64,000 bases of DNA. It comes from Chrysomallon squamiferum. Lineage: Eukaryota; Animalia; Mollusca. Positions 3,437-20,348 of this stretch are shown piece after piece; position 1 is the first letter of the stretch; every line of letters starts with the position of its first letter. A program made the position numbers and the translations under genes. The stretch is taken from assembly GCA_012295275.1 (NCBI GenBank), contig CM022671.1, positions 27,032,001-27,096,000 of the forward strand, given 5' to 3'. A model generated the notes under the pieces. The model ran no database searches and was not told where the DNA came from. It saw nothing but the letters and a program-made list of their open reading frames with translations.

Positions 3437-3835
3437 TTCTTTTTTTTTTTTGATATATCAAATATCAATGTAAAGATAGATAGATTATGCATTTATTTAT
3501 TTATTGATTTTAAAGAAAGAGAAAAAAGAAAGATATAAAAGGAGCTTGTGGGGGGTTTTTTTTGTTTGTTTTTTCGTATGTGCTGCTGCTACTACTATTA
3601 TTACTACTGGTAATAAATAAATTAAGATAGTAATTTAATTAATTAATTAACAAGAGGAACAAACAAAACAGACAAAGAAACAAGGTAAAAAGACATTTAA
3701 TATAGGATAAAATTAGAAATCACTAAAAACTTACGTTTCAATTACTAAAAAATTATAATTAAATATAAATGATGGTTTATTTATAACTGTTAATTATTAA
3801 TAATTATTAATAATCGTGAACAAAAAACGTAAACG

Positions 3836-3908
3836 AGGTTTCGGCGAGGCTCGAACTCGCGACCTTCTGCGTGTTAAGCAGACGTGATAACCACTACACC
3901 ACGAAACC
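3836..3908 (-). tRNA. tRNA-Val(AAC)
   Basis: 73-nt cloverleaf GGTTTCGTGG...TCTGC-TT-AAC-AC-GCAGA...GTTCGAGC...CGAAACCT; A and B boxes intact; T-run downstream. Confidence 0.95.
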
Positions 3909-4192
3909 GTTGAACAAAATCGTGCGATACAAAGCTAGAATCACCAGCATTAACTTTTAGTATACTTGCACGTACAATGTTACAGACATTTATAGGCACA
4001 GTCTTTAATATGCACCAGAGCACCACAGCACGTAGACGACAATATATGAAGGAAAAGTACTCAGGTTTTACAGATTTGAACTAATATTTTTAGAATGAAC
4101 AAAAAATTACTGTCCAGTGACTTTAATTAAACTACTGATGTTTTATTTATTGACTGAACTACGTGATACTATTTACATATAATATATGCGTA

Positions 4193-4265
4193 GGTTTCGT
4201 GGTGTAGTGGTTATCACGTCTGCTTTACACGCAGAAGGTCGCGAGTTCGAGCCTCGCCGGAACCT
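4193..4265 (+). tRNA. tRNA-Val(TAC)
   Basis: Same body with anticodon loop TT-TAC-AC; long oligo-T terminator follows. Confidence 0.95.
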
Positions 4266-4672
4266 TTACTCTTTTTTTTTTTTTTTTTTTTTTTTATTTC
4301 ATTATTTATAAAGAATACTATTTTTTATTATTTTGTCTAATTATTTCAGATATTCGAAAAGATTGCTGTGAAAAAGTAAATATAGCGAAAAAAGCACAGT
4401 CCATAGATATTTTGTGTCTTTTAAGATGCTTCCAAGTATCATAAATAAAGTAAAAAAAAAAAAAAAAGATTTAAGAAATTTTTGAAAGGTTATTTCAAAA
4501 CAGTGTCTCTTTGTCATCTGAATCCAATTTGATATAGTTTTTGCTTTGTTTCCCCTCTCTCTCTCTCTCTCTGAAAATAAAAATTAATTATTAATTGATG
4601 ATATTATACAAGCCAGAATAATCGAAGGAGTAGTACTGAAAAAACTGAAAATGATGGAAAGACTTTTTTAAT

Positions 4673-5406
4673 CTGGTTTCGTTTCTGCACTTGCCTGCAT
4701 ACACAGAATATGAAGTCATTGAAGAAAAACTGAAAGCTATGAACATTGAAATTTCAACACCAATTTACAGGAGATTTTATAAATGATCAAGATATGTAAG
4801 AATAAAATTTCCACTCGAAATAAAGAGGTTACCATACACTATGAAGTTTAGAACCTTTGAAGAAATTGAATATTTACGTGTTTTACACGACAATCAACTC
4901 AAAGTATGTTACAATTGTATGGCTGACACTCATTTACTGAAAGACTGCACAAATATAAGATGTCATCACTGTAAAGGACATTTTACAAGAAATTGCCCTA
5001 AAATTTTTCTTTGTGAAACATTGTGGGAAAAAAGAAGGTGAATCTGAATGTTCGTAAGAGTAAGACAGCGATGACATGAAAAACAGCGACAGTGACAGTG
5101 ATGTTATGAAGTATACTACGGATAATGCAAAACCAAAGAAGAAAAAAGAAAGTGAAGCCAAAAAAAAGAAAAAGATAAATACAATAGAAATGAAAAATTA
5201 TAAGGAAAAATCGCAGATTAGGTAGAAAAAAAAAACAGAAGAAAAAAACTATGAAAAATACTAACAAAGACGCAGAAACCATCGAAGCAGAAAATAGTCA
5301 GCAGAGAAAAACAATGCGTCGAGCGAGATTGATCAGGCGTCCGTCAGAAGAAAAACTGTGGAGTTCGGTAGACAATAGAAAATAAAAAAGAGACAAGCAG
5401 CGCGCA
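4673..5406 (+). mobile_element. Decayed ORF1 of a Tx1/L1-clade non-LTR retrotransposon
   Basis: Translates LVSFLHLPAYTEYEVIEEKLKAMNIEISTPIYRRFYK*SRYVRIKFPLEIKRLPYTMKFRTFEEIEYLRVLHDNQLKVCYNCMADTHLLKDCTNIRCHHCKGHFTRNC. This has a CX2CX4HX4C knuckle plus a second, internally deleted one, then a frameshifted D/E/K-rich tail. Stops and deletions show decay. No ORF2 seen. Family assignment is from motif recognition, not a search. Confidence 0.75.
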
Positions 5407-5712
5407 TGAAACTCTTTGAGAAACAAGAGAGGTATGTTTATTAATTTCAGATCTCCGTTTTTGGGGGGTTTTATTTTTTTTACTTTTTGTGTATTTGATT
5501 TTCTTTTGCGGGGGATCATTTGGGGGCAGTTTAGTGATTTATACATTTTTACTGCTCTCATTCCCATAGCTGCTATTTTAATCAGTTAATTATTGAATAA
5601 TGTTGGGTCACATATTAAATGGAAAAGTAATTTCTCTAGATAAAAACAAAATTCTATAAATTTCCATAACACACATGCAGGAAAAAAGAAAAAAATCAGT
5701 GAAAAGTTTGCC

Positions 5713-5785
5713 AGGTTCCGGCGAGGTTCGAACTCGCGACCTTCTGCGTGTGAAGCAGACGTGATAACCACTACACCACGAAAAC
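5713..5785 (-). tRNA. tRNA-Val(CAC), unit 1 (G2>T acceptor mismatch)
   Basis: Anticodon loop TT-CAC-AC; 5' end reads GTTTTCG; T-loop TTCGAAC. Confidence 0.8.
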
Positions 5786-6028
5786 GTCGTAATCTTATTA
5801 CTTCGTGGAAAGCATTAAGACGTGCCAGTGATAATATAAGACTATACGAATGCGCCCAATAAATGACACGATAAGTTACGTTAAAACTGTTTTTTGTTAC
5901 ATTTGCAAGTTGCATCACTATCGATTATTTATAGTGAAAGCAGAGATTATAAAATATTTTATCAGGAAATCATCATTTCTTTTGCTCATAATTATGACAC
6001 AGTTTACTGCGGAATTATAATACATGCA

Positions 6029-6101
6029 GGTTTCGTGGTGTAGTGGTTATCACGTCTGCTTAACACGCAGAAGGTCGCGAGTTCGATCCTCGCCGAAACC
6101 T
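6029..6101 (+). tRNA. tRNA-Val(AAC), unit 1
   Basis: Complete cloverleaf, T-loop variant TTCGATC, oligo-T terminator. Confidence 0.92.
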
Positions 6102-6599
6102 TGTTTTTTTTTTTTCTTTTTTAAATTATTCTGTTCCCATTACAATGAAACATTTAGTAATAAAATAATTATATCTAAGTGAAGATAGAAACATCAAACC
6201 AAGATTTACAATTCTGAATTTTTTTCTTATTCAGCGATAAAATCTGACAGTTAGTTAATTAAACTAGATAAAAAGACGAAAAGGAAAGTATTTCCTTAAA
6301 AAAGTATTCATTCAAAACATTTTATATCATTCCATTATCTTCAAGTCTGGTATGAATTACGATTTTTCTTCTAAGGAAAAGTCTTCTTATAGAAGTGAGT
6401 TTTCTTTATTATTTTAAACTTATCCTTGTCTGTAGTTATGAACTCTACTCAAACAAGTTTCGTTTAGACAGGTGTTATCTGCTTTAAATAATTCTTACAA
6501 ACAATTTCGAGAAAATGTCTTTCTTTAACTTGAAACTCTTTGAGAAACAAGAGAGGTATTTTTATTAATTTCAGATCTCCGTTTTAGTTGGGGTTTTTT

Positions 6600-6630
<31 letters not shown>

Positions 6631-6846
6631 GTGGGGTTTTGGGGGCGTCTTTTTGGGGGCAGTGTTAGTGATTTATACATTTTTACTGCTCTCATTCCCA
6701 TAGCTGCTGTTTTAATCAGTTAATTATTGAATAATGTTGGGTCACATATTAAATGGAAAAGTAATTTCTCTAGACGAAAACAAAATTCTCTAAATTTCCA
6801 TAACAAATGGGAGGAAAAAAAAAAAAAAATCAGTGAAATGTTTGCC

Positions 6847-6919
6847 AGGTTCCGGCGAGGCTCGAACTCGCGACCTTCTGCGTGTGAAGCAGACGTGATA
6901 ACCACTACACCACGAAACC
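6847..6919 (-). tRNA. tRNA-Val(CAC), unit 2
   Basis: Complete consensus copy. Confidence 0.95.
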
Positions 6920-7163
6920 TGCGTAATCTTATTACTTCGTGGAAAACATTAAGACGTGCCAGTGATAATATAAGACTATACGAATGCGCCCAATAAAATG
7001 ACACGATAAGTTACGTCAAAACTGTTTCTTGTTACATTTGCAAGTTGCATCACTATCGATTATCTATAGTGAAAGCAGAGATTATAAAATATTTTATCAA
7101 GAAATCATCATTTCTTTTGCTCATAATTATGACACAGTTTACTGCGGAATTATAATACATGCA

Positions 7164-7236
7164 GGTTTCGTGGTGTAGTGGTTATCACGTCTGCTTAACA
7201 CGCAGAAGGTCGCGAGTTCGAGCCTCGCCGAAACCT
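7164..7236 (+). tRNA. tRNA-Val(AAC), unit 2
   Basis: Complete consensus copy. Confidence 0.95.
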
Positions 7237-7987
7237 TGTTTTTCTTTTCTTTCTTTTTTAAATTATTCTGTTCCCATTACAATGAAACATTTAGTAATAA
7301 AAGAATTATATCTAAGTGAAGATAGAAACATCAAACCAAGATTTACAATTCTGAATTTTTTTCTTATTCAGCGATAAAATCTGACAGTTAGTTAATTAAA
7401 CTAGATAAAAAGACGAAAAGGAAAGTATTTCCTTAAAAATGTATTCATTCAAAACATTTTACATCATTCCATTATCTTCAACTCTGGTATGAATTACGAT
7501 TTTTGTTCTGAGGAAAAGTCTTCTGATAGAAGTGAGTATTGTTAATTATTTTAAGTTTATCCTTGTCTGTAGTTATGAACTCTACTCAAACAAGTTTCGT
7601 TTAGACAGGTGTTATCTGCTTTAAATAATTCTTACAAACAATTTCGAGAAAATGTCTTTCTTTAACTTGAAACTCTTTGAGAAACAAGAGAGGTATTTTT
7701 ATTAATTTCAGATCTCCGTTTTAGTTTTTTGTTGTTGGTTTTTCTTGATTTTTTTATTTTTTATTTTATTTTTTTTTTTGGGGGGGGTGTCTTTTGGGGG
7801 CAGTGTAGTGATTTATACATTTTTACTGCTCTCATTCCCATAGCTGCTGTTTTAATCAGTTAATTATTAAATAATGTTGGGTCACATATTAAATGGAAAA
7901 GTAATTTCTCTAGACGAAAACAAAATTCTATAAATTTCCATAACAAAATGGGAGGAAAAAAGAAAAAAAAACAGTGAAAAGTTTGCC

Positions 7988-8060
7988 AGGTTCCGGCGAG
8001 GCTCGAACTCGCGACCTTCTGCGTGTGAAGCAGACGTGATAACCACTACACCACGAAACC
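7988..8060 (-). tRNA. tRNA-Val(CAC), unit 3
   Basis: Complete consensus copy. Confidence 0.95.
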
Positions 8061-8304
8061 GTCGTAATCTTATTACTTCGTGGAAAACATTAAGACGTGC
8101 CAGTGATAATATAAGACTATACGAATGCGCCCAATAAAATGACACGATAAGTTACGTTAAAACTGTTTCTTGTTACATTTGCAAGTTGCATCACTATCGA
8201 TTATTTATAGTGAAAGCAGAGATTATAAAATATTTTATCAGGAAATCATCATTTCTTTTGCTCATAATTATGACACAGTTTACTGCGGAATTATAATACA
8301 TGCA

Positions 8305-8377
8305 GGTTTCGTGGTGTAGTGGTTATCACGTCTGCTTAACACGCAGAAGGTCGCGAGTTCGAGCCTCGCCGAAACCT
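8305..8377 (+). tRNA. tRNA-Val(AAC), unit 3
   Basis: Complete consensus copy. Confidence 0.95.
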
Positions 8378-9127
8378 TGTTTTTCTTTTCTTTCTTTTTT
8401 AAATTATTCTGTTCCCATTACAATGAAACATTTAGTAATAAAAGAATTATATCTAAGTGAAGATAGAAACATCAAACCAAGATTTACAATTCTGAATTTT
8501 TTTTCTTATTCAGCGATAAAATCTGACAGTTAGTTAATTAAACTAGATAAAAAGACGAAAAGGAAAGTATTTCCTTAAAAAAGTATTCATTCAAAACATT
8601 TTATATCATTCCATTATCTTCAAGTCTGGTATGAATTACGATTTTTCTTCGAAGGAAAAGTCTTCTTATAGAAGTGAGTTTTCTTTATTATTTTAAACTT
8701 ATCCTTGTCTGTAGTTATGAACTCTACTCAAACAAGTTTCGTTTAGACAGGTGTTATCTGCTTTAAATAATTCTTACAAACAATTTCGAGAAAATGTCTT
8801 TCTTTAACTTGAAACTCTTTGAGAAACAAGAGAGGTATTTTTATTAATTTCAGATCTCCGGTTTATTTTTTTTTTTTTTTTTTTTTGATTTTTTGATTTT
8901 GATTTTTTTGTGGGTTTTTTTGGGGGGTGTCTTTTGGGGGCAGTGTAGTGATTCATACATTTTTACTGCTCTCATTCCCATAGCTGCTGTTTTAATCAGT
9001 TAATTATTGAATAATGTTGGGTCACATATTAAATGGAAAAGTAATTTCTCTAGACGAAAACAAAATTCTCTAAATTTCCATAACAAATGGGAGGAAAAAA
9101 GAAAAAAAAATCAGTGAAAAGTTTGCC

Positions 9128-9200
9128 AGGTTCCGGCGAGGCTCAAACTCGCGACCTTCTGCGTGTGAAGCAGACGTGATAACCACTACACCACGAAACC
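9128..9200 (-). tRNA. tRNA-Val(CAC), unit 4, B-box mutant (C56>T), likely inactive
   Basis: T-loop reads GTTTGAGC instead of GTTCGAGC. Confidence 0.75.
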
Positions 9201-9440
9201 TGCGTAATCTTATTACTTCGTGGAAAACATTAAGACGTGCCAGTGATAATATAAGACTATACGAATGCGCCCAATAAAATGACACGATAAGTTACGTCAA
9301 AACTGTTTCTTGTTACATTTGCAAGTTGCATCACTATCGATTATTTATAGTGAAAGCAGAGATTATAAAATATTTTATCAGGAAATCATCATTTCTTTTG
9401 CTCATAATTATGACACAGTTTACTGCGGAATTATAATACA

Positions 9441-9460
9441 TTCGAGCCTCGCCGAAACCT
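9441..9460 (+). pseudogene. tRNA-Val(AAC) remnant, unit 4 (57-bp deletion)
   Basis: aataca joins directly to ttcgagcctcgccgaaacct (tRNA nt 54-73); the unit is correspondingly shorter. Confidence 0.9.
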
Positions 9461-10209
9461 TGTTTTTCTTTTCTTTCTTTTTTAAATTATTCTGTTCCCA
9501 TTACAATGAAACATTTAGTAATAAAAGAATTATATCTAAGTGAAGATAGAAACATCAAACCAAGATTTACAATTCTGAATTTTTTTTCTTATTCAGCGAT
9601 AAAATCTGACAGTTAGTTAATTAAACTAGATAAAAAGACGAAAAGGAAAGTATTTCCTTAAAAAAGTATTCATTCAAAACATTTTATATCATTCCATTAT
9701 CTTCAAGTCTGGTATGAATTACGATTTTTCTTCGAAGGAAAAGTCTTCTTATAGAAGTGAGTTTTCTTTATTATTTTAAACTTATCCTTGTCTGTAGTTA
9801 TGAACTCTACTCAAACAAGTTTCGTTTAGACAGGTGTTATCTGCTTTAAATAATTCTTACAAACAATTTCGAGAAAATGTCTTTCTTTAACTTGAAACTC
9901 TTTGAGAAACAAGAGAGGTATTTTTATTAATTTCAGATCTCCGGTTTTTTTTTTTTTTTTAGTTTTTTTTTGATTTTTTGATTTTGATTTTTTTGTGGGT
10001 TTTTGGGGGGGTGTCTTTTGGGGGCAGTGTAGTGATTCATACATTTTTACTGCTCTCATTCCCATAGCTGCTGTTTTAATCAGTTAATTATTGAATAATG
10101 TTGGTTCACATATTAAATGAAAAAGTAATTTCTCTAGACGAAAACAAAATTCTATAAATTTCCATAACAAATGGGAGTAAAAAAGAAAAAAATCAGTGAA
10201 AAGTTTGCC

Positions 10210-10282
10210 AGGTTCCGGCGAGGCTCGAACTCGCGACCTTCTGCGTGTGAAGCAGACGTGATAACCACTACACCACGAAACC
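10210..10282 (-). tRNA. tRNA-Val(CAC), unit 5
   Basis: Complete consensus copy. Confidence 0.95.
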
Positions 10283-10526
10283 GTCGTAATCTTATTACTT
10301 CGTGGAAAACATTAAGACGTGCCAGTGATAATATAAGACTGTACGAATGCGCCCAATAAAAGGACACGATAAGTTACGTTAAAACTGTTTCTTGTTGCAT
10401 TTGCAAGCTGCATCACTATCGATTATTTATAGTGAAAGCAGAGATTATAAAATATTTTATCAGGAAATCATCATTTCTTTTGCTCATAATTATGACACAG
10501 TTTACTGCGGAATTATAATACATGCA

Positions 10527-10599
10527 GGTTTCGTGGTGTAGTGGTTATCACGTCTGCTTAACACGCAGAAGGTCGCGAGTTCGAGCCTCGCCGAAACCT
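10527..10599 (+). tRNA. tRNA-Val(AAC), unit 5
   Basis: Complete consensus copy. Confidence 0.95.
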
Positions 10600-11343
10600 T
10601 GTTTTTCTTTTCTTTCTTTTTTAAATTATTCTGTTCCCATTACAATGAAACATTTAGTAATAAAAGAATGATATCTAAGTGAAGACAGAAACATCAAACC
10701 AAGATTTACAATTCTGAATTTTTTTCTTATTCGGCAATAAAATGTGACAGTTAGTTAATTAAACTAGATAAAAAGACGAAAAGGAAAGTATTTCCTTAAA
10801 AAGTATTCATTCAAAACATTTTATATCATTCCATTATCTTCAAGTCTGGTATGAATTACGATTTTTCTTCTAAGGAAAAGTCTTCTTGTAGAAGTGAGTT
10901 TTCTTTATTATTTTAAACTTATCCTTGTCTGTAGTTATGAACTCTACTCAAACAAGTTTCGTTTAGACAGGTAAAAGCAGTTAACCTGCTTTAAATAATT
11001 CTTACAAACAATTTCGAGAAAATGTCTTTCTTTAACTTGAAACTCTTTGAGAAACAAGAGAGGTATGTTTATTAATTTCAGATCTCCGTTTTTGTTTTTG
11101 GTTTTATTGATTTTTTATTTTGATTTTTTTTGTTTTTGTAATGGGGTCTTTTTGGGGGCAGTGTAGTGATTTATGGATTTTTACTGCTCTCATTCCCATA
11201 GCTGCTGTTTTAATCAGTTAATTATTGAATAATGTTGGGTCACATATTAAATGGAAAAGTAATTTTTCTAGACGAAAACAAAATTCTATAAATTTCCATA
11301 ACAAATGGGAGGAAAAAAGAAAAAAATCAGTGAAAAGTTTGCC

Positions 11344-11416
11344 AGGTTCCGGCGAGGCTCGAACTCGCGACCTTCTGCGTGTGAAGCAGACGTGATAACC
11401 ACTACACCACGAAACC
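11344..11416 (-). tRNA. tRNA-Val(CAC), unit 6
   Basis: Complete consensus copy. Confidence 0.95.
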
Positions 11417-11660
11417 GTCGTAATCTTATTACTTCCTGGAAAACATTAAGACGTGCCAGTGATAATATAAGACTATACGAATTCGCCCAATAAAATGACA
11501 CGATAAGTTACGTTAAAACTGTTTCTTGTTGCATTTGCAAGTTGCATCACTATCGATTATTTATTGTGAAAGCAGAGATTATAAAATATTTTATCAGGAA
11601 ATCATCATTTCTTTTGCTCATAATTATGACACAGTTTACTGCGGAATTATAATACATGCA

Positions 11661-11733
11661 GGTTTCGTGGTGTAGTGGTTATCACGTCTGCTTAACACGC
11701 AGAAGGTCGCGAGTTCGAGCCTCGCCGAAACCT
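11661..11733 (+). tRNA. tRNA-Val(AAC), unit 6
   Basis: Complete consensus copy. Confidence 0.95.
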
Positions 11734-12481
11734 TGTTTTTCTTTTCTTTCCTTTTTTAAATTATTCTGTTCCCATTACAATGAAACATTTAGTAATAAAA
11801 GAATGATATCTAAGTGAAGACAGAAACATCAAACCAAGATTTACAATTCTGAATTGTTTTCGTATTCAGCAATAAAATCTGACAGTTAGTTAATTAAACT
11901 AGATAAAAAGACGAAAAGGAAAGTATTTCCTTAAAAAAGTATTCATTCAAAACATTTTATATCATTCCATTATCTTCAAGTCTGGTATGAATTACGATTT
12001 TTCTTCTAAGGAAAAGTCTTCTTATAGAAGTGAGTTTTCTTTATTATTTTAAACTTATCCTTGTCTGTAGTTATGAACTCTACTCAAACAAGTTTCGTTT
12101 AGACAGGTAAAAGCAGTTAACCTGCTTTTAAATAATTCTTACAAACAATTTCGGGAAAATGTCTTTCTTTAACTTGAAACTCTTTGAGAAACAAGAGAGG
12201 TATGTTTATTAATTTCAGATCTCCGTTTTTGTTTTTGGTTTTTATTGATTTTTTTATTTTGATTTTTTTGTTTTTTGTACGGGGGTCTTTTGGGGGCAGT
12301 GTAGTGATTTATGGATTTTTACTGCTCTCATTCCCATAGCTGCTGTTTTAATCAGTTAATTATTGAATAATGTTGGGTCACATATTAAATGGAAAAGTAA
12401 TTTCTCTAGACGAAAACAAAATTCTATAAATTTCCATAACAAATGGGAGGAAAAAAGAAAAAAATCAGTGAAAAGTTTGCC

Positions 12482-12554
12482 AGGTTCCGGCGAGGCTCGA
12501 ACTCGCGACCTTCTGCGTGTGAAGCAGACGTGATAACCACTACACCACGAAACC
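12482..12554 (-). tRNA. tRNA-Val(CAC), unit 7
   Basis: Complete consensus copy. Confidence 0.95.
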
Positions 12555-12798
12555 GTCGTAATCTTATTACTTCGTGGAAAACATTAAGACGTGCCAGTGA
12601 TAATATAAGACTATACGAATGCGCCCAACAAAAGGACACGATAAGTTACGTTAAAACTGTTTCTTGTTGCATTTGCAAGTTGCATCACTATCGATTATTT
12701 ATAGTGAAAGCAGAGATTATAAAATATTTTATCAGGAAATCATCATTTCTTTTGCTCATAATTATGACACAGTTTACTGCGGAATTATAATACATGCA

Positions 12799-12871
12799 GG
12801 TTTCGTGGTGTAGTGGTTATCACGTCTGCTTAACACGCAGAAGGTCGCGAGTTCGAGCCTCGCCGAAACCT
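12799..12871 (+). tRNA. tRNA-Val(AAC), unit 7
   Basis: Complete consensus copy. Confidence 0.95.
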
Positions 12872-13615
12872 TGTTTTTCTTTTCTTTCTTTTTTAAATTA
12901 TTCTGTTCCCATTACAATGAAACATTTAGTAATAAAAGAATGATATCTAAGTGAAGACAGAAACATCAAACCAAGATTTACAATTCTGAATTGTTTTCGT
13001 ATTCAGCAATAAAATCTGACAGTTAGTTAATTAAACTAGATAAAAAGACGAAAAGGAAAGTATTTCCTTAAAAAAGTATTCATTCAAAACATTTTATATC
13101 ATTCCATTATCTTCAAGTCTGGTATGAATTACGATTTTTCTTCTAAGGAAAAGTCTTCTTATAGAAGTGAGTTTTCTTTATTATTTTAAACTTATCCTTG
13201 TCTGTAGTTATGAACTCTACTCAAACAAGTTTCGTTTAGACAGGTAAAAGCAGTTAACCTGCTTTAAATAATTCTTACAAACAATTTCGGGAAAATGTCT
13301 TTCTTTAACTTGAAACTCTTTGAGAAACAAGAGAGGTATGTTTATTAATTTCAGATCTCCGTTTTTGTTTTTGGTTTTTATTGATTTTTTTATTTTGATT
13401 TTTTTGTTTTTTGTACGGGGGTCTTTTGGGGGCAGTGTAGTGATTTATGGATTTTTACTGCTCTCATTCCCATAGCTGCTGTTTTAATCAGTTAATTATT
13501 GAATAATGTTGGGTCACATATTAAATGGAAAAGTAATTTTTCTAGACGAAAACAAAATTCTATAAATTTCCATAACAAATGGGAGGAAAAAGAAAAAATC
13601 AGTGAAAAGTTTGCC

Positions 13616-13688
13616 AGGTTCCGGCGAGGCTCGAACTCGCGACCTTCTGCGTGTGAAGCAGACGTGATAACCACTACACCACGAAACC
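13616..13688 (-). tRNA. tRNA-Val(CAC), unit 8
   Basis: Complete consensus copy. Confidence 0.95.
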
Positions 13689-13932
13689 GTCGTAATCTTA
13701 TTACTTCCTGGAAAACATTAAGACGTGCCAGTGATAATATAAGACTATACGAATTCGCCCAATAAAATGACACGATAAGTTACGTTAAAACTGTTTCTTG
13801 TTGCATTTGCAAGTTGCATCACTATCGATTATTTATTGTGAAAGCAGAGATTATAAAATATTTTATCAGGAAATCATCATTTCTTTTGCTCATAATTCAG
13901 ACACAGTTTACTGCGGAATTATAATACATGCA

Positions 13933-14005
13933 GGTTTCGTGGTGTAGTGGTTATCACGTCTGCTTAACACGCAGAAGGTCGCGAGTTCGAGCCTCGCCGA
14001 AACCT
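13933..14005 (+). tRNA. tRNA-Val(AAC), unit 8
   Basis: Complete consensus copy. Confidence 0.95.
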
Positions 14006-14750
14006 TGTTTTTCTTTTCTTTCTTTTTTAAATTATTCTGTTCCCATTACAATGAAACATTTAGTAATAAAAGAATGATATCTAAGTGAAGACAGAAACAT
14101 CAAACCAAGATTTACAATTCTGAATTGTTTTCGTATTCAGCAATAAAATCTGACAGTTAGTTAATTAAACTAGATAAAAAGACGAAAAGGAAAGTATTTC
14201 CTTAAAAAAGTATTCATTCAAAACATTTTATATCATTCCATTATCTTCAAGTCTGGTATGAATTACGATTTTTCTTCTAAGGAAAAGTCTTCTTATAGAA
14301 GTGAGTTTTCTTTATTATTTTAAACTTATCCTTGTCTGTAGTTATGAACTCTACTCAAACAAGTTTCGTTTAGACAGGTAAAAGCAGTTAACCTGCTTTA
14401 AATAATTCTTACAAACAATTTCGGGAAAATGTCTTTCTTTAACTTGAAACTCTTTGAGAAACAAGAGAGGTATGTTTATTAATTTCAGATCTCCGTTTTT
14501 GTTTTTCGTTTTTTTGATTTTTTGATTTTGATTTTTTTGTTTTTTGTAGGGGGGTCTTTTGGGGGCAGTGTAGTGATTTATACATTTTTACTGCTCTCAT
14601 TCCCATAGCTGCTGTTTTAATCAGTTAATTATTGAATAATGTTGGGTCACATATTAAATGGAAAAGTAATTTCTCTAGACGAAAACAAAATTCTCTAAAT
14701 TTCCATAACAAATGGGAGGAAAAAAGAAAAAAATCAGTGAAAAGTTTGCC

Positions 14751-14823
14751 AGGTTCCGGCGAGGCTCGAACTCGCGACCTTCTGCGTGTGAAGCAGACGT
14801 GATAACCACTACACCACGAAACG
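14751..14823 (-). tRNA. tRNA-Val(CAC), unit 9 (G1>C acceptor mismatch)
   Basis: 5' end reads CGTTTCG, breaking the 1-72 pair. Confidence 0.78.
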
Positions 14824-15067
14824 TTCGTAATCTTAATACTTCGTGGAAAACATTAAGACGTGCCAGTGATAATATAAGACTATACGAATGCGCCCAATAA
14901 AATGACACGATAAGTTACGTTAAAACTGTTTCTTGTTGCATTTGCAAGTTGCATCACTATCGATTATTTATAGTGAAAGCAGAGATTATAAAATATTTTA
15001 TCAGGAAATCATCATTTCTTTTGCTCATAATTATGACACAGTTTACTGCGGAATTATAATACATGCA

Positions 15068-15140
15068 GGTTTCGTGGTGTAGTGGTTATCACGTCTGCTT
15101 AACACGCAGAAGGTCGCGAGTTCGAGCCTCGCCGAAACCT
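15068..15140 (+). tRNA. tRNA-Val(AAC), unit 9
   Basis: Complete consensus copy. Confidence 0.95.
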
Positions 15141-15886
15141 TGTTTTTCTTTTCTTTCTTTTTTAAATTATTCTGTTCCCATTACAATGAAACATTTAGTA
15201 ATAAAAGAATGATATCTAAGTGAAGACAGAAACATCAAACCAAGATTTACAATTCTGAATTTTTTTCTTATTCGGCAATAAAATGTGACAGTTAGTTAAT
15301 TAAACTAGATAAAAAGACGAAAAGGAAAGTATTTCCTTAAAAAAGTATTCATTCAAAACATTTTATATCATTCCATTATCTTCAAGTCTGGTATGAATTA
15401 CGATTTTTCTTCTAAGGAAAAGTCTTCTTGTAGAAGTGAGTTTTCTTTATTATTTTAAACTTATCCTTGTCTGTAGTTATGAACTCTACTCAAACAAGTT
15501 TCGTTTAGACAGGTAAAAGCAGTTAACCTGCTTTAAATAATTCTTACAAACAATTTCGAGAAAATGTCTTTCTTTAACTTGAAACTCTTTGAGAAACAAG
15601 AGAGGTATGTTTATTAATTTCAGATCTCCGTTTTTGTTTTTGGTTTTTATTGATTTTTTTATTTTGATTTTTTTGTTTTTTGTACGGGGGTCTTTTGGGG
15701 GCAGTGTAGTGATTTATGGATTTTTACTGCTCTCATTCCCATAGCTGCTGTTTTAATCAGTTAATTATTGAATAATGTTGGGTCACATATTAAATGGAAA
15801 AGTAATTTTTCTAGACGAAAACAAAATTCTATAAATTTCCATAACAAATGGGAGGAAAAAAGAAAAAAATCAGTGAAAAGTTTGCC

Positions 15887-15959
15887 AGGTTCCGGCGAGG
15901 CTCGAACTCGCGACCTTCTGCGTGTGAAGCAGACGTGATAACCACTACACCACGAAACC
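15887..15959 (-). tRNA. tRNA-Val(CAC), unit 10
   Basis: Complete consensus copy. Confidence 0.95.
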
Positions 15960-16235
15960 GTCGTAATCTTATTACTTCCTGGAAAACATTAAGACGTGCC
16001 AGTGATAATATAAGACTATACGAATTCGCCCAATAAAAGGACACGATAAGTTACGTTAAAACTGTTTCTTGTTACATTTGCAAGTTGCATCACTATCGAT
16101 TATTTATAGTGAAAGCAGAGATTATAAAATATTTTATCAGGAAATCATCATTTCTTTTGCTCATAATTATGACACAGTTTACTGCGGAATTATAATACAT
16201 GCAGGTTTCGTGGTGTAGTGGTTATCACGTCTGCT

Positions 16236-16307
16236 CTCCGCGGCTGGAGTCGGGACGTTTCCCCCACGGGAACGAACCCCGGCTTGAGAGAAAAAAAAAA
16301 AAAAAAA
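16236..16307 (+). other. Unidentified 55-nt GC-rich hairpin-forming segment followed by A17, at the 5' end of the insert
   Basis: ctccgcggctggagtcgggacgtttcccccacgggaacgaaccccggcttgagag+A17. gagtcggg pairs with cccggctt, and cgtt(t)ccc pairs with gggaacg around a ccac loop. Confidence 0.8.
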
Positions 16308-17472
16308 GAGTGGAACGGAAGTGGATGTAACAAAGATGAAAGATTCCGAGCGTCCCAGTACCTAATTGGTCTGGTACAAGAGAGGAATGGAAGAGCTAAG
16401 ACTGAAGTAATAGATGAAGATGGTAAAGACTCAGATACTCGAAGGAAAAAGGCTGAGTTTATGAAATTTCTCACTGAAGAGGACTGTGAGGACACAGAAA
16501 AGCAGTATGAGGCAGCTGACACATGTAAACAACTGTTCAGACTCTCTGATGCTAGTGGCAGTTTGCAGTTTTCTCTGGAAAAAGAAGGCACTGTTACCAA
16601 AGGTGACTTTGACAGCAAGGATGTGTTTATCTTTGACACAAAGCAGCAGCTCTTTGTGTGGATAGGTAAACAGACAAGTCCAGAAGAAAAGAAGAATGCA
16701 CTTGTTTATGCTCACAAATATCTGATGAAGTCAGATCATCCACTTGTACCAGTGAGCTGTCTGAAGGAGGAAAGACCAAACCACGCGTTCCTTAGTGCCA
16801 TCGCAGCCTGAGCCAGAAACACTGAAACAATTTATTTTTAACCGTTGATCTTTGGTGAAATGTTTATCATTATGTTCATTGGTACCCTCGCAACTTGAAC
16901 TAGATAAACAGAAACATTTTATCTTTAACTGTGAACTTTGGTGAAATGGTTATAATTATGAAACTATTATTAACTTGTGAATTAAATTGCAATTCTAACA
17001 TCATTGTCTTATGATATTGTTAAAACACTTTAAAATGTAAAACAACTTGCTAAATACTGTTTCACTGGTAATCACGTTTTGAAAACATTTTATTATCTTG
17101 GTTGGGGAGATGAAAAATTTATTAATTTGTCTAGTTGTTATTAATTCTTTTTGTTTCTGGTATTTTACAAATTTTGTTAATAGAAAACAACTCCTGTTTT
17201 CAGTTAGTTCATGGAAATCTTGTAATGAAAACCATGAGCCAACAATAACTTTTAGATGTCATAATAAAAACAGATTATAACATCACACTCAACGTTTTTA
17301 GGTTGGTTGCTCAAAGAATATATTAGAACAAGAAATCAAATAGTTGGAAAAATACATTTTTAATATTACATACATACATTTTAAATTGTTCTCCTGTACA
17401 AAAATATATAAATACCTTGTTATGAAGAAAAAGAGTAATAAATGTTTTTAATCTAAAAAAAAAAAAAAAAAA
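16308..17472 (+). pseudogene. 5'-truncated processed retrocopy of a gelsolin-like (gelsolin/severin family) mRNA
   Basis: Uninterrupted intronless frame 16308-16811 (WNGSGCNKDERFRA...QLFRLSDASGSL...DSKDVFIFDTKQQLFVWIGKQTSPEEKKNAL, gelsolin-repeat motifs), 3'UTR, AATAAA 17437-17442, A18 17455-17472, then the TSD. Confidence 0.93.
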
Positions 17473-18273
17473 GTTATCACGTCTGCTTAACACGCAGAAG
17501 GTCGCGAGTTCGAGCCTCGCCGAAACCTTGTTTTTCTTTTCTTTCTTTTTTAAATTATTCTGTTCCCATTACAATGAAACATTTAATAATAAAAGAATGA
17601 TATCTAAGTGAAGACAGAAACATCAAACCAAGATTTACAATTCTGAATTGTTTTCGTATTCAGCAATAAAATCTGACAGTTAGTTAATTAAACTAGATAA
17701 AAAGACGAAAAGGAAAGTATTTCCTTAAAAAAGTATTCATTCAAAACATTTTATATCATTCCATTATCTTCAAGTCTGGTATGAATTACGATTTTTCTTC
17801 TAAGGAAAAGTCTTCTTATAGAAGTGAGTTTTCTTTATTATTTTAAACTTATCCTTGTCTGTAGTTATGAACTCTACTCAAACAAGTTTCGTTTAGACAG
17901 GTAAAAGCAGTTAACCTGCTTTAAATAATTCTTACAAACAATTTCGGGAAAATGTCTTTCTTTAACTTGAAACTCTTTGAGAAACAAGAGAGGTATGTTT
18001 ATTAATTTCAGATCTCCGTTTTTGTTTTTCGTTTTTTTGATTTTTTGATTTTGATTTTTTTGTTTTTTGTAGGGGGGTCTTTTGGGGGCAGTGTAGTGAT
18101 TTATACATTTTTACTGCTCTCATTCCCATAGCTGCTGTTTTAATCAGTTAATTATTGAATAATGTTGGGTCACATATTAAATGGAAAAGTAATTTCTCTA
18201 GACGAAAACAAAATTCTCTAAATTTCCATAACAAATGGGAGGAAAAAAGAAAAAAATCAGTGAAAAGTTTGCC

Positions 18274-18346
18274 AGGTTCCGGCGAGGCTCGAACTCGCGA
18301 CCTTCTGCGTGTGAAGCAGACGTGATAACCACTACACCACGAAACC
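18274..18346 (-). tRNA. tRNA-Val(CAC), unit 11
   Basis: Complete consensus copy; its upstream flank is interrupted by the H1 retrocopy. Confidence 0.93.
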
Positions 18347-18390
18347 GTCGTAATCTTATTACTTCCTGGAAAACATTAAGACGTGCCAGT

Positions 18391-19519
18391 AGTACTTCGT
18401 AAAGCGGTTGCCGTGTGTTCGTTACTGAATTTCAGTTAAATCTTCGTAGAAAACTTTAGATATCGAAAATGTCTGATGCAGCAGTAGCAGCAGTACCTAC
18501 TCCAAAGGTGAAAACACCCAAGAAAAAGAGTACGAAGCCAAAGACGCCGTCCGAACATCCTAAATACAGCCAAATGATTAAAGAAGCGATTGTTGCTCTA
18601 AAGGAAAAAGGCGGTTCGTCTAGACAAGCAATCCTGCAGTATGTTGTGAAGCATTACAAGGTAACCGACGAGAAAACTGTCAACCAACATTTGAAAATGG
18701 CACTGAGGGCTGGAGTGAAAAACAACAGTTTAAAACACGCTAAAGGATCGGGCGCCTCCGGATCTTTCAAACTCGGAGAAACAAAAACACCCAAAGTGAA
18801 GAAGCCAGCAGCTAAAAAAGTAAAGAAACCGAAGACTGCCAAACCCAAGAAAGTCACGAAGACAAAATCGCCCAAAAAGCCCAAGACAGCTAAACCGAAA
18901 AAGGCCAAGGAAGCAAAGCCTAAGGTAAAGAAATCACCCAAAAAGGCAGCGAAACCCAAAGTCACAAAGGCTGCAGCAGCAAAACCTAAAGTAAAGAAGC
19001 CCAAGACGCCCAAAAAGGCAGCGAAGAAGTAAACCAACAAAAATGTTAAGAGGTGCAATGGACATTCATTATTTATCAGTGGTTTCCTGACAGTACAGAT
19101 CTGCGTGTGTTCGTTTCTAGGATATTCTTACGTCAACAACATTTATATTGATGTGACGAGGTGACTATAGTCTGCGGAGAGAAAATAGTGTGAATGAACT
19201 GGATGACAAGATTTTTAGAACGTTTTTCATTTCTGAAAGTTACAAACTTCATCATATTGTTAATCTTTCATGGACCATCGGTGTACATATAATTCATAAA
19301 AAAAAAAAGTGTCATTTTTATACAAACTTTGTTTAAATATTCTTTTGTTTTGTTTAAAAAAAAAAGAAGAAAAATAGTGCTTCATAGACCTTAGAGATAA
19401 ACAATGTTTACCATTTTGAAAATGGGACACAATTCTGTATCATTATATGTATGAAACTGAGAGTGTTATAACTAATCATCATTAAATATTATCTGTTTAC
19501 ATTTGAAAAAAAAAAAAAA
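18391..19519 (+). other. Processed retrocopy of a polyadenylated histone H1 mRNA
   Basis: 13-bp TSD aagacgtgccagt at 18378-18390 and 19520-19532 (leading As ambiguous with the tail); 78-nt 5'UTR, ORF, 3'UTR, ATTAAA 19481-19486, poly(A) from 19506. Confidence 0.95.
18469..19032 (+). CDS. H1: Linker histone H1 (H1.0/H1-delta-like replication-independent type), intact 187-aa ORF within the retrocopy
   Basis: Globular domain HPKYSQMIKEAIVALKEKGGSSRQAI...GSGASGSFKL, K/A/P-rich tail with S/TPKK motifs; no histone 3' stem-loop; poly(A) tail present. Confidence 0.93.
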   Translation: MSDAAVAAVPTPKVKTPKKKSTKPKTPSEHPKYSQMIKEAIVALKEKGGSSRQAILQYVVKHYKVTDEKTVNQHLKMALRAGVKNNSLKHAKGSGASGSFKLGETKTPKVKKPAAKKVKKPKTAKPKKVTKTKSPKKPKTAKPKKAKEAKPKVKKSPKKAAKPKVTKAAAAKPKVKKPKTPKKAAKK

Positions 19520-19732
19520 AAGACGTGCCAGTGATAATATAAGACTATACGAATGCGCCCAATAAAAGGACACGATAAGTTACGTTAAAACTGTTTCTTG
19601 TTGCATTTGCAAGTTGCATCACTATCGATTATTTATAGTGAAAGCAGAGATTATAAAATATTTTATCAGGAAATCATCATTTCTTTTGCTCATAATTATG
19701 ACACAGTTTACTGCGGAATTATAATACATGCA

Positions 19733-19805
19733 GGTTTCGTGGTGTAGTGGTTATCACGTCTGCTTAACACGCAGAAGGTCGCGAGTTCGAGCCTCGCCGA
19801 AACCT
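19733..19805 (+). tRNA. tRNA-Val(AAC), unit 11
   Basis: Complete consensus copy. Confidence 0.95.
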
Positions 19806-20003
19806 TGTTTTTCTTTTCTTTCTTTTTTAAATTTTTCTGTTCCCATTACAATGAAGCATTTAGTAATTAAAGAATTATATCTAACTGGAAATAGAAACAT
19901 CAAATATTTTTTTGAAACGTTTTTTCTATACTAGTGTCTATTTGTCATTTAATTCCAGCTAGATAAAATATCTCTCTCTCTCTCTGCCAAAAAGTTAAAA
20001 AAG

Positions 20004-20270: not shown

Positions 20271-20348
20271 GGTTTCGTGGTGTAGTGGTTATCAACTAAA
20301 AAACATGAAAACTAAAACGGAGATCTGAAATTAATAAAATTACCTCTT
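20271..20348 (+). pseudogene. tRNA-Val 5' fragment (nt 1-24) joined to an inverted piece of the array spacer
   Basis: ggtttcgtggtgtagtggttatca at 20271-20294, then aaactaaaacggagatctgaaattaataaaa, the reverse complement of the spacer motif ttttattaatttcagatctccgttttagttt. Confidence 0.8.

Follow-up and report, generated by a model that had tools for sequence, protein, structure and literature searches.

Two Tailed RNA Copies within One Target Site Duplication in a Gastropod tRNA-Val Gene: Nested Insertion or Template Jump

Chimeras attributed to template switching (U6/L1, U6/processed pseudogene, MINE) are characterized, according to PMC2104539, by a full-length RNA on the 5' side, a truncated part on the 3' side, a direct join between the two and a single pair of repeats around the whole. 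The named alternative is a second insertion into the 3' end of a first one (PMC4476161), and the same account takes an extra base at such a junction, in one case, to point to two events. Of three de novo LAVA insertions, one lies within the poly(A) tail of an Alu that was already there (PMC5174737); another carried an untemplated G at its 5' end, and therefore G's of this kind also arise without nesting. In vitro, the jumping of R2 works best with an overhang of 1-2 nt that is complementary to the 3' end of the acceptor (PMC8857657). Elements that target tRNA genes or their arrays include Dada DNA transposons, Dewa (Tx1 group) and TRE5-A (PMC3706591), and the insert described below likewise lies inside a multicopy tRNA gene. 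Both nesting and jumping are known from mammals and fungi, and no paper on retrocopies in mollusc tRNA arrays was found in a literature search that covered a minority of the subscription papers.

The whole stretch of DNA that we analysed, called the window below, is 64,000 nt long with a GC content of 27% and carries a tandem array of tRNA-Val genes (3835 to 19904, of no single strand, with a unit of about 1135 bp), each unit of which holds one AAC tRNA-Val gene on the plus strand and one CAC gene on the minus strand. There are 22 intact tRNA-Val genes in the array, and the insert splits one further gene, a tRNA-Val(AAC) on the plus strand. The 5' part of the split gene (nucleotides 1-32, positions 16204 to 16235) ends two bases before the anticodon; the right part (nucleotides 18-73, positions 17473 to 17528) starts with the right copy of the target site duplication (TSD), and both parts are identical to an intact neighbour. 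Sequence comparison places the left copy of this 15-nt direct repeat at 16221 to 16235 and the right copy at 17473 to 17487. The two copies agree exactly and cannot be extended, so that one TSD pair does bracket two separately tailed pieces, as the preliminary description of this DNA had it; the identification of the target as a tRNA-Val gene of a tandem array goes beyond that description. The last three nucleotides of the left copy (16233 to 16235) also match the source of the first piece, and therefore the TSD is 12-15 nt long. The 300-nt flanks match other units at 97-99% on the left and at 96-99.7% on the right.

Between the TSD copies, all on the plus strand, lie a 55-nt GC-rich hairpin (16236 to 16290), a run of 17 A's (A17, 16291 to 16307), a single G (16308) that is probably not derived from gelsolin, a 5'-truncated, intron-free gelsolin-like cDNA of 1146 nt (16309 to 17454) and a tail of 18 A's (A18, 17455 to 17472), which begins 12 nt behind a poly(A) signal. 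Twin priming is rejected because the two parts share one orientation. The insert contains no retroelement ORF and neither of its pieces is recognizable as a retroelement, again in agreement with the preliminary description; both ORFs in the insert region are intact. The structure is real and was made by reverse transcription from two sources. The tRNA 5' part, the 55-mer and A17+G happen to run in frame with the gelsolin coding sequence, which gives 212 codons without a stop (16173 to 16811); this ORF has no ATG 5' of the gelsolin part.

The insert resembles the template-switch chimeras in that it has two RNA copies in one orientation, one pair of repeats and a truncated 3' part. It differs from them in that its 5' part is truncated too (the source in run X6 continues for 25 letters upstream of 16233), has an A-run of its own and is no small RNA known to Rfam; a direct join is in doubt, as one probable non-gelsolin G, an extra base that matches the target, completes an 18-nt repeat with the right end. 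With an insertion nested in an A tail it would have in common the shared orientation, a host tail as the target and an inner TSD of A's that is hard to see; here the host would be a 55-nt repeat piece and the passenger a cellular mRNA, the site is a tRNA gene in a gastropod, and the order is deduced. Like the processed pseudogenes of the L1 type (PMC2912911), it has lost its introns, carries its tail downstream of a poly(A) signal, is truncated at its 5' end and shows a TSD in the range of 13-15 nt and microhomology at the 5' end, whereas its outer nick, in the tRNA gene, is not T-rich; a histone H1 copy nearby sits at TT/AAGA. Dada has TSDs of 6-7 bp and encodes a DDE transposase (PMC3706591), and a Dada DNA transposon is rejected here on the grounds of the TSD of 12-15 nt, the A tails and the lack of a transposase ORF. 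Dewa sits in the spacer of a tRNA-Leu array according to the same source, whereas the present insert is inside a tRNA-Val gene. A tRNA-targeting element would be expected to insert repeatedly at the same tRNA position; within the window, none of the 22 intact tRNA-Val genes has the insert.

We turn to the gelsolin part, for which contigs of public runs were aligned to the insert. These come from 8 of 13 runs: X1, X4, X8 and X9 at a likeness of at least 90%, and X5, X6, X3 and X7 at 80%, with X2 and X10 to X13 left out (the latter four have a share of 0.06 or less). The fragment matches the gelsolin family of Pfam (PF00626, E 3.3e-13), and its ORF is 80% identical to residues 206-367 of protein P0001, so that it begins at residue 206 of 367 and is truncated at its 5' end. 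The closest named protein is gelsolin-like protein 2 of the gastropod Gigantopelta aegis (80% identity), the next matches reaching at most 60%, which makes a related snail the probable host. The stop codon (16809 to 16811) is followed by a 3' UTR with the poly(A) signal AATAAA at 17437 to 17442 and by A18 from 17455, and contigs of the parent gene continue past 17443. A 5'-truncated gelsolin mRNA had thus been recognized correctly from the start; the 1165 nt then given for the RNA copied counts the tail and G16308 along with the 1146 nt.

The introns expected in the parent gene are there. In contigs of X1, X4 and X9, introns begin (GT) behind 16436 and 16540, one ends near 16618 to 16621, and a 559-nt intron lies at 16715/16716. 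X1 and X4, the kind of which is guessed as DNA, also have contigs that span the spliced junctions at 16436 to 16451, at a depth of 77 against 101-147 in parent-only contigs (X1) and of 9.3 against 12.8-14.1 (X4). A processed gelsolin copy therefore exists in the X1 and X4 animals, and no contig shown links it to the split tRNA gene. In X9 there is an unbroken parent contig of 3959 nt and the spliced junction was not found, a hint that the retrocopy is polymorphic for presence and absence. Over about 1100 nt, 6-8 positions separate the window copy from the runs, and from this we take the gelsolin copy to be young. Contigs and protein comparison also reveal an alternative micro-exon of 15 nt (16437 to 16451), five residues that are absent from P0001 and included in the retrocopy; in the RNA run X8 some contigs contain it and others end at its borders. 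One X8 contig extends about 1190 nt beyond the poly(A) site of the retrocopy, and a form with a longer gelsolin 3' UTR may exist. As in processed pseudogenes made by LINEs, the gelsolin part has lost its introns and carries its tail behind a poly(A) signal; a flanking TSD of about 10-20 nt is supplied by the outer 15-nt repeat, and the inner A(n)+G repeat is a candidate for another.

The first piece is of a different nature. The 55-mer has a GC content of 69% and folds as one hairpin (-25.2 kcal/mol, z -2.47, 5 of 200 shuffles being as stable), which confirms the hairpin segment that had been noted there. A second copy was not found within the 64-kb window, and at a likeness of at least 90% no contig covers 16244 to 16290 in any of the four runs X1, X4, X8 and X9. 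At 80% five contigs cover the 55-mer, all less than 90% alike: one of 102 nt in X6, with a depth of 4133, and four of 60 nt in X5, with depths of 27-73. X3 and X7 have none at this likeness. The source contigs match 16236 to 16257 exactly and have 7-9 extra letters in and beside the loop (7 in X6, 9 in three of the X5 contigs), all of them missing from the window and mostly in homopolymers. In X6 the match begins at 16233, which takes in three bases of the TSD, and the contig has 25 GC-rich letters upstream of this point, so that the 55-mer is a 5'-truncated piece joined by a 3-nt microhomology. Its 3 mismatches appear to fall in 16285 to 16297, one of them at 16285; at least 5 of the first 7 A's of A17 would then match, and the source would be A-rich too. 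The source contigs vary in the length of the C-run in the loop, and their depths are 24-fold apart (4133 in X6 against a sum of 174 in X5).

The single-copy depth is about 13 in X4, which belongs to the same study as X6; with this value in place of X6's own, the X6 depth would make some hundreds of source copies. A ribosomal spacer and a young dispersed repeat are the leading guesses, and organelle or symbiont DNA is a further possibility. At the gathering score, Rfam returns only 22 tRNA matches, and on 16180 to 16340 only two chance miRNA matches (E 2.7 and 7.7), in a search that would miss a variable rRNA segment or a spacer. Exact 18-22 nt patterns of the 55-mer have 0 matches in JGI metagenomes, GTDB genomes and IMG/VR; the first pattern set crosses the loop where the source differs and is a weak test, and the second set lies within the matching part. 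This argues against a bacterial or phage source as far as these three collections reach. That the 55-mer is part of the gelsolin mRNA is rejected: an X8 RNA contig runs 669 letters upstream of 16321, an extent that agrees with the 205 codons missing here, but 16244 to 16290 are without depth in this run, and X7 has no contig at 80%; such coverage holes are weak evidence. The separate sources proposed for the two pieces are thus borne out, with source contigs at high read depth on one side and parent gelsolin contigs on the other. An age reading, by which the 7-9 missing letters would make the 55-mer older than the gelsolin copy, was dropped because differences that consist of deletions only also fit a variant copy, slippage at the hairpin or long-read error.

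The internal junction is where we depart from the preliminary description, which saw no target-derived sequence at this point. In frame, 16308 to 16310 reads E in front of a conserved WNG. Among the best 61 of 95 homologue matches (the other 34, mostly vertebrate scinderins, are left out), 52 have Q at this position, 6 have L, one each has T, I and V, and none has E; this makes CAG the likely codon of the parent and G16308 probably foreign to gelsolin. Judged by these homologues, the gelsolin part most likely starts at 16309 and not at 16308. A17+G (16291 to 16308) is an exact 18-nt repeat of 17456 to 17473, that is, of the right tail with the first target base, and A17+G, or a shorter A-run with the G, may be the left copy of a second TSD that is almost entirely A's. 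If an mRNA is inserted into an existing A tail, the inner TSD consists mostly of A's and is absorbed into both tails, and the whole remains enclosed by the outer TSD. An inner TSD of A's is invisible, and therefore the single visible TSD cannot separate one event from two. A second TSD had been named beforehand as the case against a single insertion, and a candidate for it is present on both sides of the gelsolin part, nearly all A's and dependent on one base.

How much weight this base can carry was estimated with a toy model of nesting, in which, under assumed inputs, 22-79% of cases show nothing of the inner TSD. Exactly one G is obtained under nesting at a rate of 0.07-0.12 and one extra G in a single event at 0.009-0.036, a ratio of about 2-13 for which the inputs are assumptions (an extra-base rate of 12-15% and a TSD peak at 14-16 nt, both human values from PMC2912911). 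The ratio is modest and depends on one base with a deduced parent state. G directly follows 21 of the 72 A-runs of 10 or more in the window, so that the match of that base alone is weak.

The outer nick falls between nucleotides 17 and 18 of the tRNA, in what we take to be the A-box region of the gene, and frees a primer that ends in GATAAC, with T at 2 of the last 10 bases. For human L1, four terminal matches to poly(A) give the best priming, and some mismatch is tolerated, a terminal C best (PMC3649969). By these rules the primer is a poor one for the poly(A) of an mRNA. A T-rich nick of the TT/AAAA type is absent at the tRNA nick and would be present if the target was A17. Under nesting and jump alike, one event at the tRNA nick stays outside the L1 rules.

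Any explanation has to account for the intron loss, the tails, the outer TSD, the separate sources and the 18-nt A17+G repeat, which the sequence establishes. The one to which we incline, without great confidence, is that two ordinary insertions are stacked at one spot, the second into the tail of the first; the order of events and the enzyme in this scheme are what we infer. A nick between tRNA nucleotides 17 and 18 would have primed the copying of a structured GC-rich RNA, which would have halted after about 55 nt, joined by 3-nt microhomology and left the 15-nt TSD. The new A17 would then have been nicked near its 5' edge, its T-run would have primed on the gelsolin poly(A), and an L1-like reverse transcriptase would have copied 1146 nt of gelsolin mRNA. 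With a second nick one base past the A-run, A(n)+G would be duplicated on both sides and hidden in the tails. Nesting fits the identity of 16291-16308 and 17456-17473, and it gives G16308, which needs a non-gelsolin origin, a supplier in the target. It also spares the poor tRNA-nick primer from serving an mRNA poly(A): the neighbouring H1 copy used TT/AAGA, and the gelsolin mRNA, too, would use a T-rich primer. Precedents are the LAVA insertion in an Alu (PMC5174737) and the alternative named in PMC4476161. Against this, the argument hangs on one base, the parent state of which comes from homologues, and a G directly behind the A-tract of the source itself would leave the two models even. For the first insertion a target that is not T-rich is still required, which moves the problem without removing it; three insertions are needed within 3.3 kb; and one of them has to hit a target of 17 bp when the array offers about 108 TTAAAA-like sites and 10 long A/T runs. 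Neither an intermediate allele (55-mer and A tail without gelsolin) nor a contig across the tRNA/55-mer junction was seen in the contigs of the 8 runs, and filters and contig cleaning make the latter result uninformative.

A single event, which we regard as possible but doubtful, would have the gelsolin poly(A) primed at the tRNA nick, 1146 nt copied, one untemplated base added, a template jump to the A-rich end of a structured RNA, about 55 nt copied from it and a finish by 3-nt microhomology. One TSD pair around both pieces and their shared orientation speak for such a jump, as does the need for two events in the array instead of three. Flanks and tRNA halves that are as intact as those of the neighbours fit one recent event, chimeras of this kind are described in mammals and Magnaporthe (PMC2104539 and PMC4476161), and 12-15% of human 5'-truncated junctions carry extra bases (PMC2912911). 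The jump has to contend with an extra base that is the very one that the target would duplicate, and the untemplated C would not pair with a poly(A) end, where the cDNA without it already ended in T. The truncated 5' part stands against the full-length 5' RNAs of the known chimeras, and the mRNA poly(A) would have to prime on the primer ending in GATAAC. Of the reverse-transcriptase jump in the preliminary description, reverse transcription is supported; the template jump itself is not established, with a second-TSD candidate in the sequence. Readings other than nesting or jump are, taken jointly, unlikely. A composite RNA is very unlikely; its pieces would have been joined beforehand, either at the RNA level or through a gelsolin copy within a transcribed repeat at another locus, and the tRNA gene would have received them in one round of copying. 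It would explain one TSD without a jump, chimeras in an L1 assay arise by ligation before copying (PMC8857657), and another processed copy could exist, as the spliced junctions of X1 and X4 are not tied to the insert locus by the contigs shown. Set against it, there is no composite contig in two RNA runs, and the depth of the spliced junctions in X1 and X4 leaves room for about one processed copy. Ligation of the RtcB type is poorly suited to this joining, since it needs a cyclic-phosphate end and a poly(A) end has none. It is highly improbable that the gelsolin retrocopy is real and the 55-mer or its junctions arose only in assembly. The lack of contigs on 16244 to 16290 at a likeness of at least 90% in 4 of 4 runs would fit, as would the likeness below 90% of all five contigs at 80% and gap letters that are all missing from the window and mostly in homopolymers, as long-read errors would give; an artefact, however, would not create an exact TSD, a junction microhomology with the true source and two intact ORFs. 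The 55-mer may contain errors even if the insert is genuine.

It follows from the hiding of an inner TSD in A-runs that a single TSD around two tailed pieces is no proof of template jumping, and we see the insert as one dead, young insert made by known routes. Should the jump be demonstrated, it would be an invertebrate in vivo case with a tailed acceptor other than U6. If the 55-mer belongs to a tRNA-targeting element, it would mark a new site-specific retroelement. We think it quite unlikely that the 55-mer represents the 3' end of a structured RNA or element of high copy number, as yet undescribed, the partner enzyme of which cuts the A-box of tRNA-Val without a T-rich primer, and that a true jump in vivo joined the gelsolin cDNA to it. 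Were both the jump and such an enzyme true, the locus would be a mollusc record of a tRNA-targeting retro-machine that captured a host mRNA.

A separate histone H1 retrocopy occupies the spacer of the next unit (18378 to 19532 on the plus strand, TSD included). The insert itself (18391 to 19519) matches Pfam PF00538, the H1/H5 family (E 1.1e-27), has an A16 tail and is flanked by a 13-nt TSD (18378 to 18390 and 19520 to 19532) at TT/AAGA; the site is empty in 10 other units. From this retrocopy at TT/AAGA, L1-like capture of mRNA appears to be ordinary in the array. Two or three retro-insertions within 3.3 kb at one array end suggest that such arrays collect retrocopies. The H1 copy is apparently full-length with an intact ORF (ATG near 18469, stop at 19030 to 19032) and has a long 3' UTR with ATTAAA at 19481. 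Several other features of the window may be recorded. A broken ORF at 4450 to 5406, preceded by an A16 run and abutting a truncated array unit at 5407, has two zinc-knuckle-like motifs (4787 to 5038; Pfam zf-CCHC at E 0.27, below the cut-off) and an Atlas match of 0.91 to a cluster in which 41% of members have zf-CCHC; it is possibly a remnant of an L1/Tx1 ORF1. The first pair of the array (3835 to 4266) has AAC and TAC anticodons and different spacers, and one unit lacks the first 53 nt of its plus-strand tRNA region (9201 to 9441, with an internal deletion at about 9441). Beyond the array end, at 20271 to 20347, a 24-nt 5' fragment of tRNA-Val is joined to an inverted 50-nt piece of array spacer.
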